A stretch of 64,000 nucleotides of DNA from assembly GCF_024502345.1 (NCBI RefSeq), contig NZ_JALDNN010000001.1; one strand, given 5' to 3'. The stretch's first letter is position 1. Every line of letters starts with the position of its first letter. The notes beneath the pieces were generated by a model that made no database searches, was not told where the DNA came from, and worked only from the letters and a program-made list of their open reading frames with translations. Made by a program: the position numbers and the translations under genes. Source of the stretch: Escherichia coli. Its GTDB lineage: Bacteria > Pseudomonadota > Gammaproteobacteria > Enterobacterales > Enterobacteriaceae. This document shows positions 1 through 53,300 of this stretch, piece by piece.

Positions 1-12
1 AGTAAGCAATTT

Positions 13-642
13 ATGGCTATTATGCCAGAACTATTAACAGATGCCGTCTGGCGTGCCGTGCTCAATGTATATGATGCCGATGCAGCACGATGGTTCTGGC
101 GTAAGCAACCACCAGAAAATCGGTTGTATCGCTTAAAGGCTATGGCATTAATACCACAAACGGATGCGCTGTTGGCGGATATTCGACAAACTCCAGAGGT
201 ACTGAATATCTCGTCTGAGAGTGATCCGAATGAAGAGGAGTTTCTCCATTTCTTAATTAATGGGGGCGATATCACTGTAATACATGCACTGGTTGAAAAA
301 GGAATAGTTAACTGGCAGCACCTTATGAACATTGAGGGGTTTGATAAGGACCCCCTAATTTGGGCTATTTCAAAGCTGGGAGAAACTGACAATGACCGGG
401 AGGTTTTGGCATTAATTATTCATGATATTAATGCGCAAAACGCACTGCCGGAGGATCGCATTGCCAAATATTTAACGCGGACGGGATCAATGGGCGATAT
501 TTTTTTAAAAGCGGGCTTACATTGTGATAAGTTATATTCGGCAATTGAGTCCGACAAAAAGCGAAATAATGGTATGTATAGTCAAAACGCCAGGGAAGAA
601 GTGGATCGCGTATGTACTCCGGTGATGCTGCCAACTTACTGA
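13..642 (+). CDS. Uncharacterized protein, C-terminal part; the frame is open to the window edge so the 5' end may lie upstream. Its last 7 codons and stop are supplied by the IS1 terminus (native end would be ...RVCTPAK). Paralogous to the C-terminal half of the 1452..2862 gene.
   Basis: ORF track; by-eye alignment MPELLTDAVWRAVLNVYDADAARWFWRKQPP vs MPELLSEEAYANVIDAYDSATLKAFWQIQLP, and NWQHL...SAIE vs DWQRL...SAIE; frame reconstruction across the IS1 junction. Confidence 0.5.
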   Translation: MAIMPELLTDAVWRAVLNVYDADAARWFWRKQPPENRLYRLKAMALIPQTDALLADIRQTPEVLNISSESDPNEEEFLHFLINGGDITVIHALVEKGIVNWQHLMNIEGFDKDPLIWAISKLGETDNDREVLALIIHDINAQNALPEDRIAKYLTRTGSMGDIFLKAGLHCDKLYSAIESDKKRNNGMYSQNAREEVDRVCTPVMLPTY

Positions 643-675
643 TTTAGTGTATGATGGTGTTTTTGAGGTGCTCCA

Positions 676-951
676 GTGGCTTCTGTTTCTATCAGCTGTC
701 CCTCCTGTTCAGCTACTGACGGGGTGGTGCGTAACGGCAAAAGCACCGCCGGACATCAGCGCTATCTCTGCTCTCACTGCCGTAAAACATGGCAACTGCA
801 GTTCACTTACACCGCTTCTCAACCCGGTACGCACCAGAAAATCATTGATATGGCCATGAATGGCGTTGGATGCCGGGCAACCGCCCGCATTATGGGCGTT
901 GGCCTCAACACGATTTTCCGCCATTTAAAAAACTCAGGCCGCAGTCGGTAA
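676..951 (+). CDS. insA: IS1 InsA (transposition repressor)
   Basis: 91-aa [46 protein letters not shown] matches recalled InsA. Confidence 0.9.
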
Positions 952-1373
952 CCTCGCGCATACAGCCGGGCAGTGACGTCATCGTCTGCGCGGAAATGGA
1001 CGAACAGTGGGGATACGTCGGGGCTAAATCGCGCCAGCGCTGGCTGTTTTACGCGTATGACAGGCTCCGGAAGACGGTTGTTGCGCACGTATTCGGTGAA
1101 CGCACTATGGCGACGCTGGGGCGTCTTATGAGCCTGCTGTCACCCTTTGACGTGGTGATATGGATGACGGATGGCTGGCCGCTGTATGAATCCCGCCTGA
1201 AGGGAAAGCTGCACGTAATCAGCAAGCGATATACGCAGCGAATTGAGCGGCATAACCTGAATCTGAGGCAGCACCTGGCACGGCTGGGACGGAAGTCGCT
1301 GTCGTTCTCAAAATCGGTGGAGCTGCATGACAAAGTCATCGGGCATTATCTGAACATAAAACACTATCAATAA
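870..1373 (+). CDS. insB: IS1 InsB reading frame (expressed as InsAB' transposase by -1 frameshift)
   Basis: ORF overlapping insA in the -1 frame, ends 15 bp before the IS1 terminus. Confidence 0.85.
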
Positions 1374-1451
1374 GTTGGAGTCATTACCTGTACTCCCGCA
1401 AAATAGGTGCAGTTTGGCGCGGTTAAGGAATAAAAAATAAAGGACTAAGCC

Positions 1452-2862
1452 ATGCGTAACGATGAACTTCTTCACCATTTTACTTTTACATTGCTTATGT
1501 TGGGTGGCTATCTACTGACTCTGTTCATCGTTATCGTCCTTTCCTTTTTTCGCCCACTATGCCGAAAAATGGTCTTCCATGGCATATTGCCACAATTGAT
1601 GATGTCGCTAATGGTGTCGCTCGGTTTATATTATCTGGAACGATACTCTATTGCGGTATGGGCCTTACTGGATTCTGTTTGGATATTATTCCCTTGCCTG
1701 TTATTGATCATAGTGATAAATAAATGGTCAAAACGTTCCCTTGTATGGATGAGTGCTTGTCATATTATGTGCTTGCTGTTGTTACTCTGGCAGGTGCAGC
1801 CCACGTTATTTAAAATCAGCTTTTATCACCAACAATTAAGTCACCTGGCTCAGGCAGAACAGGAAAATTTCCGCACACTGGATGCGATTCACGATACGCA
1901 ACGTCTGGAAGAGATGTTGCTGGTAGCGTTGAAATCCCCGGAAAATAAAACCTCTGAAAATGCCTTTCGCTATCTGTCAGGGCGAATCTCACCATTTGCT
2001 ATACCTTCCATTGGCGATCAAAAGTATTCTACCCGCACTTTTTTTACGATTGCGTTGGAACATTACAACGCCCGCGCCATCCGCGCGTTTAGCCGCTTTC
2101 TGCAAGGAAATTCCTCAAAAGCGCAGGAATATCGCGCGATTGTTCATCAAAACAATCCACTGCAGCAGATGTACCGGGGAATAAGTTTGCCAATTCGTTT
2201 TAGTGAAGAAGAGATCGCCCGCCACATTGTTGCCGCTCGCGAGATAAGCCTCACCTTACTGCCCCTGATGCCAGAATTATTAAGCGAAGAGGCGTATGCA
2301 AATGTCATTGATGCTTATGACAGCGCAACGCTGAAGGCTTTTTGGCAGATCCAGCTGCCCGCCCACGCCGGTTTTACGCCTGGAAGCGATGTCGGTAATT
2401 CCTATGACAGCGGCACTCGTTCAACAGGTGAGGGAGTCACCAAAGCGGCTTGAACTGAAAGATAAAAGTGGCAGGACAGTACTAACTTACATCGTGCGCT
2501 TTGGAAATATTGCCGCAGTACAGGCACTGATTGACGCTAATCTGATCGACTGGCAACGGCTTCGCCAATCGACAGAAAGGTCAACACCATTATTACTGGC
2601 CACCTGGCGACAAAAATACGACGATGATCATGTAATCTTCCCATTGATTTTAAAGGACATTCTGGCAAAAAATACACCACCGTCGGCAGAGGAAATAATG
2701 AACTGCATCAAGGATGGTATGACCGCAGATGATTTTTTATCTGCCGGAATGAGCAACACGCAATTCTGTTCTGCGATTGAACAAAGCCTCCAGGCGAAAA
2801 CGTCAGTATTACCGGCGAATCGATTACGCCATCTGCAATCCTCGCTGTGTGCAAAGCTGTAA
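1452..2862 (+). pseudogene. Uncharacterized polytopic membrane protein gene split by a frameshift near 2360-2375 (ORFs 1452..2453 and 2389..2862); N-terminal hydrophobic domain plus C-terminal soluble domain; paralog of the 13..642 gene
   Basis: Two overlapping ORFs in different frames; homology to the upstream paralog continues across the frame change (FWQIQLPAHAG / VLRLEAMSVIPMTAAL vs FWRKQPPENRLYRLKAMALIPQTDAL). Confidence 0.45.
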
Positions 2863-2977
2863 CCAACCGGGAGTTAAGTCATCCGCTGAAAACATCGCAT
2901 TAACTTTTCGATTTCTCTTTCGTTCCGGCTTATAATCCCCGGCCTTTGATTATTTTTTTATCATTTCTGGAAGCAAA

Positions 2978-7499: not shown

Positions 7500-7603
7500 A
7501 CGTTCCTCCTTTATATGAACTCACCGGAGCAGGCTCCGGTGAGGTGTTGTGAACTTAAGTCTGGACGAAATGCCCGAAAACGAAAGTTTGAGGCGTAAAA
7601 AGC

Positions 7604-13313: not shown

Positions 13314-13510
13314 GCCTGATGCGCTACGCTCATCAGGCCTACAAAATCTATTGCAACATGTTGAATCTTCGTGCGTTTGTAGGCCGGATAAGGCGTTCAC
13401 GACGCATCCGGCATTAGGTGCTCAATGCCTGATGCGCTACGCTTATCAGGCCTACAAAATCTATTGCAACATGTTGAATCTTCATGCGTTTGTAGGCGGA
13501 TAAGGCGTTT
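13314..13510. repeat. REP/BIME-type extragenic palindromic repeats: two ~83-bp direct copies (GCCTGATGCGCTACGCT...GGATAAGGCGTT) 113 bp apart
   Basis: Direct repeat read in sequence; internal palindromes typical of REP. Confidence 0.7.
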
Positions 13511-49680: not shown

Positions 49681-50034
49681 TAGCGTCAAAAAAGCCCCGG
49701 CAAGTTTTATTGTCGGGGCTATGATAGTAACTGCGGTAGTACATTTATCCCGGAAATAACCGGAGCGATTATCAGGGTTTAACAATATTAAATACCCGTA
49801 GCGCATTACTAGCGGGCCTAAAACAACAATATGGACATCTTAACGATACTCTGCGCCTGCGTGTGCGGAACAGAAACCCTTACCCGATATACTTGTTATG
49901 CCAGAGGTAGCAATTGCGTTAGCGGCGTACTGTTGCTGTAAAGTATAACGCCTATATTTTACAGTTCAGTCCTCTTTTGCTTATTACAACCTTAAGTATA
50001 TCAAGCATATAAAGATAATAAGAGACTGAACAAT

Positions 50035-52202: not shown

Positions 52203-53300
<1,098 letters not shown>

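Follow-up and report, generated by a model that had tools for sequence, protein, structure and literature searches.

The 64,000-nt window analysed here, from contig NZ_JALDNN010000001.1 of Escherichia coli (assembly GCF_024502345.1), opens inside a rare cassette of two tandem, co-oriented paralogous genes for proteins of 474 and 469 aa, and we propose that this cassette has decayed in two steps, an inherited extra C in the downstream gene followed by a later IS1 insertion into the last codons of the upstream gene. We put the probability of this explanation as a whole at about 0.88. The frameshift is older than the IS1 insertion, and the case is one of ordinary gene decay in an uncharacterised protein family.

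The cassette is flanked by ftsP and ygiQ (Table 1). In near-identical contigs, including ones that bear IS1, ftsP is found 50 bp 5' of the first paralog, and relative to K-12 only a 38-bp hairpin, located between the ftsP stop codon and the conserved ygiQ leader, is replaced by the two genes. The suggestion in a preliminary description of this DNA that the block takes the place of the ftsP side of ygiQ is therefore incorrect. Before IS1 arrived the two paralogs were 45 bp apart, which together with the 50-bp spacing from ftsP gives an operon-like layout, and they were probably co-transcribed. The block is carried by 13 of 5,426 complete E. coli genomes.

Table 1. Features of the ftsP-ygiQ junction in the window
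Feature	Position	Strand	Remarks
Upstream paralog, 3' part	1..642	+	window starts at codon 266; 474 codons in relatives
Target duplication, left copy, TGTACTCC, 8 bp	613..620	.	
IS1, intact, 768 bp, co-oriented with flanking genes	621..1388	+	closest to copies annotated IS1B
Target duplication, right copy, TGTACTCC, 8 bp	1389..1396	.	
Orphaned native end of upstream gene, GCA AAA TAG (AK and stop)	1398..1406	+	
Downstream paralog, pseudogene	1452..2862	+	native frame to stop at 2860-2862
Frameshift, CCC versus CC in intact orthologs (+1 C)	2356..2358	+	common to contigs L006-L014
G-to-T substitution, Met to Ile in LKDML motif	2661..2661	+	
ygiQ leader, conserved with K-12 and O157	2906..2977	+	right-hand edge of accessory block
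ygiQ, radical SAM protein, 739 aa	2978..5197	+	intact core gene anchoring the locus

The left inverted repeat of IS1, GGTGATGCTGCCAACTTACTGAT (621-643), for which shuffled sequences gave an expectation of 0 chance occurrences, agrees with the right repeat at 18 of 23 positions. The reading frames insA (676-951, 91 aa) and insB' (870-1373) are joined by a -1 frameshift at the slippery A run TTAAAAAAC at approximately 924-932, and the element is 98.9-99.7% identical to copies annotated as "IS1-like element IS1B family transposase." As the preliminary description had recognised, the element is flanked by a target duplication, whose sequence is single-copy in the IS1-free contigs L006-L012. The duplication is exactly 8 bp, as the adjoining bases, A and C on the left and G and C on the right, do not match, and target duplications of IS1 are normally 8 or 9 bp (PMC12428005). 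The comparison with IS1-free strains that had been advised could be made directly: once the element and one of the two target copies are taken out, the window differs from L006-L012 by just 1-3 mismatches over 2,201 nt, and by no indel. In its length, imperfect inverted repeats, A-run frameshift between insA and insB' and 8-bp duplication, the insertion resembles IS1 insertions in E. coli and Shigella genes and shows no mechanistic difference from them, its position in the third-from-last codon being the only notable trait. Only one IS1 left end is found in the 64 kb, which speaks against an IS bloom of the Shigella type.

Given insertion into the third-from-last codon, the host protein is re-tailed, not truncated. 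The last six codons and the stop codon of the upstream gene (621-642, with the stop at 640-642) are supplied by the left end of IS1, so that the native end EEVDRVCTPAK* becomes EVDRVCTPVMLPTY* (i.e., ...CTPVMLPTY). The loss of the final two codons described previously is thus real, with AK replaced by VMLPTY and the native GCA AAA TAG stranded beyond the element. The first 265 codons of the gene lie outside the window, and their integrity was judged from exact-match contigs; 14 public contigs encode precisely this 478-aa fusion product, immediately 3' of ftsP. The preliminary description related the upstream gene to the C-terminal domain of its neighbour; in relatives it is a full-length paralog with a four-helix membrane domain of its own, which falls to the left of the window. 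The re-tailed protein probably still works, as its tail tolerates change (the E. whittamii ortholog naturally has 9 additional aa).

In the downstream gene, CTGCCCGCCCAC of the window corresponds to CTGCCGCCCAC in intact orthologs, and the extra C is the sole indel in 2.2 kb relative to the intact orthologs of LD91-1 and GF4-3. Deletion of one C in silico yields a 469-aa protein that matches the orthologs; intact orthologs of 469 aa are those of LD91-1, GF4-3, PT62 (where the upstream gene is also present) and P0001-P0005. The frame is lost at codon 303 and a premature stop follows 32 codons on (2451-2453), and the resulting ORF (1452-2453) encodes 333 aa that comprise four membrane helices and the N-terminal half of the soluble domain. 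This product is a membrane stub that lacks the ankyrin region as well as the invariant motif RLEAMSVIP. A frameshift had been noted before, and it is real; its earlier placement at 2360-2375 in a GG/TTTT run has to be corrected, as the indel lies in the C run 2-4 nt further to the left. Like other pseudogenes created by single-base homopolymer indels, this one has gained one base in a short C run and has an early stop, a lineage-fixed allele and later substitutions downstream. It differs in that the run is of 2 to 3 bases and that no reversion alleles were seen; a run this short is not a phase-variable contingency tract. The LKDML motif is kept in every downstream-type ortholog that reaches it (P0007 stops short), and its G2661T substitution was seen only in the window and in the two IS1-bearing contigs that cover the base (L013 and L014).

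The order of the two events is given by L006-L012, in which the +C allele occurs together with an intact, IS1-free upstream gene of 474 aa; the downstream gene was consequently already a pseudogene when IS1 arrived. Exact IS1 junctions are found in at least eight other contigs. The right junction between IS1 and its target is identical in L013 and L014, and the left junction with the fusion product is found in 14 contigs, of which the six fetched all end within IS1. Over 7,140 nt, L013 and the window are distinguished by a single base. GCA_050022275.1 is an example of an assembly from an IS1-bearing isolate, and GCA_054852445.1 of one from an IS1-free frameshift carrier. Based on these observations, the extra C first shifted the downstream gene at codon 303 and left the 333-aa stub, and IS1 subsequently entered the upstream gene, duplicating its 8-bp target and exchanging AK for VMLPTY. 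From what is generally known of IS1, the element, which now splits the formerly closely spaced pair, should be polar on the downstream stub; ygiQ retains its own conserved leader. With the stub already non-functional, such polarity would hardly matter, and the earlier suggestion that IS1 likely changes downstream expression is moot for the same reason, the +C allele being older than the element. A promoter scan from IS1 to the downstream start revealed no promoter-like site and, overall, nothing above shuffled expectation, and a role of IS1 in driving expression of the downstream gene was discarded on this ground.

The C-terminal halves of the two paralogs share 24% identity (E 8e-22), in agreement with the earlier reading of the downstream gene as a membrane domain followed by a domain paralogous to the upstream gene, and the full-length proteins are 25-27% identical over ~470 aa. 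The dN/dS values of 0.17-0.25, at dS of 0.7-0.9, show that these are real genes. Each protein consists of four N-terminal membrane helices and an all-alpha repeat domain of ~350 aa that includes a probable ankyrin stretch. A word-indexed homolog search recovered only 7 and 4 clusters for the two proteins and missed the other paralog, whereas an exhaustive profile search revealed a wider family, which is still small, is confined to Enterobacteriaceae, is annotated just as hypothetical and has been pseudogenised repeatedly. Scans of both intact paralogs against NCBIfam, PADLOC and PHROGs gave nothing usable (PADLOC none at E <=1). Pfam Ank_2 matches the downstream protein with E 0.0015 and the upstream protein with E 0.14, both below significance when taken alone; the family profile matches the KANK ankyrin domain with E 1.7e-4, and its positions 326-364 match many eukaryotic multi-ankyrin proteins. 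The ankyrin-like part amounts to ~100 residues, and the remainder of the domain is a generic helical repeat. In the AlphaFold model, four long N-terminal helices are followed by a helical solenoid of helix-turn-helix repeats, with block-mean pLDDT mostly of 80-94 in the soluble part and of 38-55 in the membrane part. Foldseek returned no match in the PDB at E <=0.001 and only uncharacterised relatives in AFDB50. The loops between helices 1 and 2 and between helices 3 and 4 are basic in most of 11 family representatives, and the four-segment pattern is present in the majority, several representatives lacking four clean segments in a crude scan by simple hydropathy and charge count. From the basic loops, both termini are predicted to face outward, which would place the repeat domain in the periplasm.

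On these grounds the most likely role of the intact proteins would be that of protein-binding scaffolds that are anchored in the inner membrane and expose their repeat domain to the periplasm. We give only a small chance to the fuller proposal that they form an undescribed, Enterobacteriaceae-only family of four-helix inner-membrane proteins with a periplasmic ankyrin/helical-repeat domain, which, being kept directly downstream of the gene for the periplasmic cell-division protein FtsP in Escherichia, Superficieibacter and Pseudocitrobacter, may have FtsP or another component of the envelope or divisome as its client; if that were true, the repeated loss would point to a dispensable, niche-specific envelope function. 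A possible parallel is AnkB of Pseudomonas aeruginosa, an ankyrin-like protein of the periplasm without which KatB does not reach full activity (Howell et al., 2000, J Bacteriol 182:4545). AnkB, too, is an ankyrin-repeat protein of a Gram-negative bacterium, is attached to the inner membrane and has been proposed to help other proteins in the periplasm by binding them; it is, however, a small protein with just one anchor or signal, its gene accompanies katB, and the proteins here have four helices and a repeat domain of ~350 aa. A catalase neighbour was absent from every genomic context examined. Plant PGG-domain proteins and TRPA1, to which there are weak fold matches, likewise combine ankyrin-type repeats with a helical membrane domain, but their domain order is reversed and the Foldseek matches (E ~0.1) are not significant, so that the likeness is an analogy only.

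The paralogs might instead be orphan ankyrin-type immunity proteins against envelope-acting polymorphic toxins, whose genes often stand in tandem arrays and are readily lost. Ankyrin-repeat immunity families have been described for polymorphic toxin systems, and several traits of the present family would suit such a role: divergent paralogs are in tandem in both E. coli and Pseudocitrobacter, the distribution is patchy and loss recurrent, the genes evolve faster than their neighbours, and one Enterobacter copy adjoins a Barstar-family gene. We nevertheless consider this role unlikely, as no toxin, Rhs, CDI or T6SS neighbour was found in eight contexts, PADLOC and NCBIfam gave no match, and the synteny beside ftsP is stable in three genera (Escherichia, Superficieibacter and Pseudocitrobacter), unlike that of typical immunity islands.

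With regard to IS1, its position exactly between a near-untouched upstream gene and a dead downstream one could be taken to mean that the insertion was selected, by blocking read-through and so silencing a 333-aa stub that is possibly harmful to the envelope. The downstream gene has no separate promoter-like site, and the allele recurs, the fusion product being present on 14 contigs. This recurrence is, however, accounted for by clonal descent, given the identical junctions and the near-identity of L013 to the window, and IS1-free carriers of the frameshift seem to be commoner than IS1 bearers (187 blocks of public assemblies versus 14 contigs), from which it follows that the stub is evidently tolerated. 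Selection for the insertion is accordingly quite unlikely.

That the interrupted downstream gene is still in use, either by programmed frameshifting or as a 333-aa membrane part plus a separate 157-aa ankyrin part, is very improbable. An in-frame ATG at 2389 does open a 157-aa ORF over the ankyrin region, a 152-aa gene has been called there in L009 by one pipeline, and the allele is widespread. A +1 shift would be needed, though, and no known +1 slippery or stall motif is present in 2356-2453; any shift after 2358 would scramble the invariant R309-L310-A312-I316-P317 block, and programmed frameshifting was rejected for these reasons. The 157-aa piece, for its part, carries neither a membrane anchor nor an export signal. 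Other lineages have inactivated the same gene in unrelated ways, through loss of 519 bp that include the ribosome-binding site and the membrane domain in L003 and L004 and through splits into 130 and 310 aa in Salmonella, which fits decay and does not fit regulation.

It is scarcely credible that the downstream gene is really intact and the frameshift an artefact of sequencing or assembly at a short homopolymer. The difference does amount to a single C added to a run of that base, and homopolymer errors are common on some platforms, but so short a run (2 to 3 bases) is an atypical error site. The exact 333-aa product recurs in 187 blocks of assemblies that come independently from ENA, NCBI and Logan, the same allele is present in all nine contigs L006-L014, and the non-conservative Met-to-Ile change at 2661 has since been gained downstream of the indel in the sublineage. 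Resequencing, from which the preliminary description had expected a possible refutation should the frameshift vanish and the two ORFs prove unrelated, would therefore not remove it.

The two-step decay is thus a clean and datable one in an accessory locus, with the frameshift first and IS1 second, and carries little wider weight. The IS1 junction, the extra C and G2661T can serve as lineage markers, and the locus is also a warning for annotation. A by-product of modest value is the description of a small family of ankyrin-like proteins that are anchored in the membrane of enterobacteria and lack annotation, with genes often in tandem and often pseudogenised, at the variable ftsP junction. Bacterial ankyrin proteins are mostly discussed as secreted effectors, and one that is encoded on the chromosome, embedded in the membrane and possibly periplasmic would, if confirmed, be a small addition.

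The only other island at this junction that a literature search for ftsP together with ygiQ returned is the unrelated GR 21 (ygiQ..ftsP), a 7.8-kb sugar-acid and TRAP-transporter island of B2 ExPEC strains (PMC12928451). It occupies the same ftsP-ygiQ junction, which is consequently a known variable spot in E. coli, but its gene content is unrelated and the ankyrin paralogs are not described there (PMC12928451). In contig L017, a family member is followed by a TRAP-transporter and dehydrogenase gene set that resembles GR 21.

The upstream gene of the tandem pair is interrupted at its very end by a complete IS1 element, which all the family membership tests assign to IS1, and its 768 bp are flanked on both sides by TGTACTCC, in agreement with the 8-bp duplication claimed in the preliminary description. 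Against IS1B-annotated copies from complete E. coli genomes the element has 98.9-99.7% identity; its right inverted repeat matches the left one at 18 of 23 positions, and the left repeat occurs once in the window against an expectation of 0 in shuffles. The target duplication is exactly 8 bp, because the bases adjoining its two copies differ; duplications of 8 or 9 bp are reported for IS1 (PMC12428005). The upstream frame enters IS1 and stops at 640-642, and its product ends in ...DRVCTPVMLPTY where the native protein ends in ...DRVCTPAK; as had been claimed, the last two codons are lost, and AK and the stop codon are stranded behind the element. The predicted sequence of this 478-aa fused product, built from the closest IS1-free allele, was looked up and is on record in 14 contigs. 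Each of the six contigs fetched terminates within the left end of IS1, with no difference from the window in that part, and ftsP lies 50 bp upstream in L025-L027, the fetched fusion contigs that reach far enough upstream. Because only the last two residues are altered, the conserved Cys-Thr-Pro is kept and the E. whittamii ortholog bears a natural extension of nine C-terminal residues, the upstream protein has probably kept its function. A suspected absence of the upstream paralog from IS1-rich PT62, AH04, CX12 and others was rejected, as the gene is present there (dS of 0.016 to the window allele).

Features of the IS1/paralog locus and other positions referred to in the text (window positions unless a comparison contig is named)
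Feature	Position	Basis or remark
IS1, complete, 768 bp	621-1388	length, terminal repeats, reading frames, identity to annotated copies
IS1 left inverted repeat GGTGATGCTGCCAACTTACTGAT	621-643	
insA	676-951	
insB'	end at 1373	
IS1 slippery run TTAAAAAAC	about 924-932	
Target duplication TGTACTCC	613-620 and 1389-1396	flanking IS1
Orphaned native end GCA AAA TAG	1398-1406	
Frameshift, one extra C	2356-2358	alignment to LD91-1 and GF4-3
519-bp deletion	L003:5600-5700 (2013C-4282) and L004 (MFDS1022581)	window equivalent ~1439-1957
K-12 hairpin site	L015:2463-2500	counterpart in carriers: two genes, L002:5156-8128
Rfam match loci	7538-7601, 13382-13452, 24425-24501, 49735-49956, 52808-52930	

For the downstream gene, IS1 and one duplication copy were removed from the window sequence, which was then aligned to LD91-1 and GF4-3, the two best IS1-free matches. 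A single indel was found over 2.2 kb: the window has CTGCCCGCCCAC and both strains have CTGCCGCCCAC. The frameshift in the preliminary description is therefore real, but lies in a C run a few bases to the left of the GG/TTTT run at 2360-2375 where it had been placed. With the extra C removed in silico, the gene encodes 469 aa that are colinear with every ortholog, and all computational tests identify the gene as a frameshift pseudogene. An error as the source of the shift, under which it would vanish on resequencing, is rejected because the exact truncated 333-aa product was found in 187 blocks of public assemblies. In LD91-1 the full 469-codon ORF is open (L001:6676-8085); RefSeq starts the gene at an internal ATG (L001:6973), giving 370 aa and losing the membrane domain, which is an annotation inconsistency.

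The comparison with strains lacking IS1 that had been proposed gives the order of the two lesions. Seven fetched IS1-free contigs (L006-L012) carry the frameshift and encode the 333-aa product beside an intact 474-aa upstream gene, with 1-3 mismatches in 2,201 positions to the window's reconstructed empty site. Two further contigs, L013 (GCA_050022275.1) and L014, start inside the right end of IS1 with a junction identical to that of the window, from which L013 differs at 1 of 7,140 bases. G2661T, a Met-to-Ile change in a motif conserved across all downstream-type orthologs that reach it, is common to the window and both IS1-bearing contigs covering the position, and it is absent from every IS1-free contig compared. 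Since the 333-aa product accompanies an intact upstream gene in IS1-free contigs and G2661T is limited to the IS1-bearing lineage, the extra C is older, and a sublineage subsequently acquired the IS1 insertion and G2661T, in either order. Both the precedence of the extra C and the effect of the lesions on the coding sequences are shown by the sequences compared. A rare pair of accessory genes in ordinary, stepwise decay accounts fully for the finding.

The pair lies in the order parC, plsC, ftsP, paralog 1 (474 aa), paralog 2 (469 aa), ygiQ and yqhH in LD91-1, GF4-3, PT62 and metagenomic contigs, with gaps of 50 bp after ftsP and 45 bp between the paralogs. The block had been thought to stand in place of the ftsP side of ygiQ. 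It does not replace ftsP, which is present upstream of paralog 1 in carriers, because in K-12 and O157 the ftsP stop is separated from the shared ygiQ leader by just 38 bp. These 38 bp form a perfect hairpin, ATACTCGCCC-GAGGA-GGGCGAGTAT, directly after the ftsP stop, which may represent the ancestral terminator of ftsP or a scar left by deletion. The block is at least 80% present in 13 of 5,426 complete E. coli genomes, the full block being missing from >99%, and IS1 was found at this site in none of the 5,426. The other 4,197 of the 4,210 genomes with any match fall below the 80% threshold; among the matches listed, similarity is confined to the final 62-75 bp ahead of ygiQ. The junction is a known variable spot, since GR 21, a 7.8-kb TRAP-transporter island of B2 strains, occupies it (PMC12928451). 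In an Escherichia-like metagenome contig (L017:4203-11410), ftsP is followed by ORFs of 39 and 132 aa, one 469-aa family member, and TRAP-transporter and dehydrogenase genes resembling GR 21 of B2 ExPEC (PMC12928451), so both kinds of content can coexist there; the 132-aa ORF may be a remnant of the upstream paralog. The far side of ygiQ is also variable, as hypothetical genes absent from the window lineage and K-12 lie between ygiQ and yqhH in GF4-3 (L002:10491-11947) and PT62 (L005:8879-10213), and 2013C-4282 has an additional LPP-like gene there.

The two paralogs probably formed one transcription unit originally, possibly including ftsP, given the 45-50 bp gaps, a promoter scan that found nothing promoter-like before the downstream start, and the lack of the K-12 hairpin after ftsP in carriers. 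IS1 insertions are classically polar, so the downstream stub is probably transcribed less; this would be of little consequence, the gene being dead already, and ygiQ retains its own conserved leader.

Decay of the family is recurrent. Four complete genomes, for instance 2013C-4282 and MFDS1022581, carry a 519-bp deletion with AAAAT microhomologies at its ends, by which the downstream gene loses its ribosome-binding site and its initial 506 nt, and with them the start codon and the whole four-helix membrane part. This inactivation is independent of the window's lesions. The 224-aa remainder is named 'ankyrin repeat domain-containing protein' in RefSeq. Salmonella clusters include 130-aa and 310-aa fragments side by side, S. 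Typhi has two fragment entries, and the Superficieibacter copy has 428 aa. Insertion sequences also recur around family members: IS1-family transposase genes lie directly downstream in an Escherichia cryptic-clade contig (L020:6779-7389) and Salmonella (L021:6443-7140), the latter with ISL3 nearby.

The paralogs are 25-27% identical over their full length, so that the paralogy claimed for their C-terminal domains (E 8e-22) holds and extends further. The AlphaFold model of the downstream type (mean pLDDT 76) has four long N-terminal helices of low confidence (residues 3-31, 35-61, 67-89 and 96-137; hydrophobic span about 9-115) and, behind them, a solenoid of helical repeats in which block-mean pLDDT is mostly 80-94. 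In the domain search that had been suggested, Pfam alone gave sub-threshold matches for both paralogs, while the family profile matched KANK ankyrin domains at residues 332-422 (E 1.7e-4) and many multi-ankyrin proteins at profile positions 326-364; by these profile matches, the family probably contains ankyrin repeats. Scans with NCBIfam, PADLOC and PHROGs returned nothing, and fold searches matched only uncharacterised enterobacterial relatives and generic solenoids. Loop charges were counted in 11 representatives, not all of which resolve four hydrophobic segments cleanly; in those that do, charges of +1 to +4 and zero acidic residues were counted for loops 1-2 and 3-4, together with a neutral or acidic N terminus and loop 2-3. 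By the positive-inside rule, this simple charge count would place both termini outward and the repeat domain in the periplasm. No toxin neighbours were found in the contexts examined that would suggest ankyrin-type immunity, there is no PADLOC match for anti-phage defence, and the catalase linkage of AnkB-like proteins is not shared, and we therefore place the family in no functional family. The description of this uncharacterised membrane-ankyrin family is the only mildly new element here.

An exhaustive profile search of 1.84 billion representatives found some twenty clusters that are full-length or nearly so; their sizes run from roughly 360 to 590 aa and are mostly near 470 aa. All named members are from Enterobacteriaceae and annotated 'hypothetical' (Escherichia species, Superficieibacter, Pseudocitrobacter, Salmonella, Atlantibacter, Enterobacter cancerogenus, Phytobacter, Klebsiella grimontii and a Serratia species). 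A location beside ftsP is conserved in Superficieibacter, Pseudocitrobacter and other clades of Escherichia; family members of Salmonella, Atlantibacter and Enterobacter occupy other loci without constant neighbours. Pseudocitrobacter corydidari CP087880 carries two family members, of 587 and 472 aa, in tandem between ftsP and ygiQ (L022:3178-6419), preceded by LemA and M48-peptidase genes, and its 587-aa protein has an N-terminal extension of about 120 residues with further hydrophobic segments. The family genes are real but fast-evolving, with dN/dS of 0.17-0.25 at dS of 0.7-0.9; between GF4-3 and PT62, dN/dS is 0.02 for ftsP and 0 for ygiQ. Elsewhere in the window, Rfam matches above the gathering score are ES173, two naRNA4 (REP-derived) loci, C0719 and isrC, which are known E. 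coli small-RNA families with no relation to the IS1/paralog locus.
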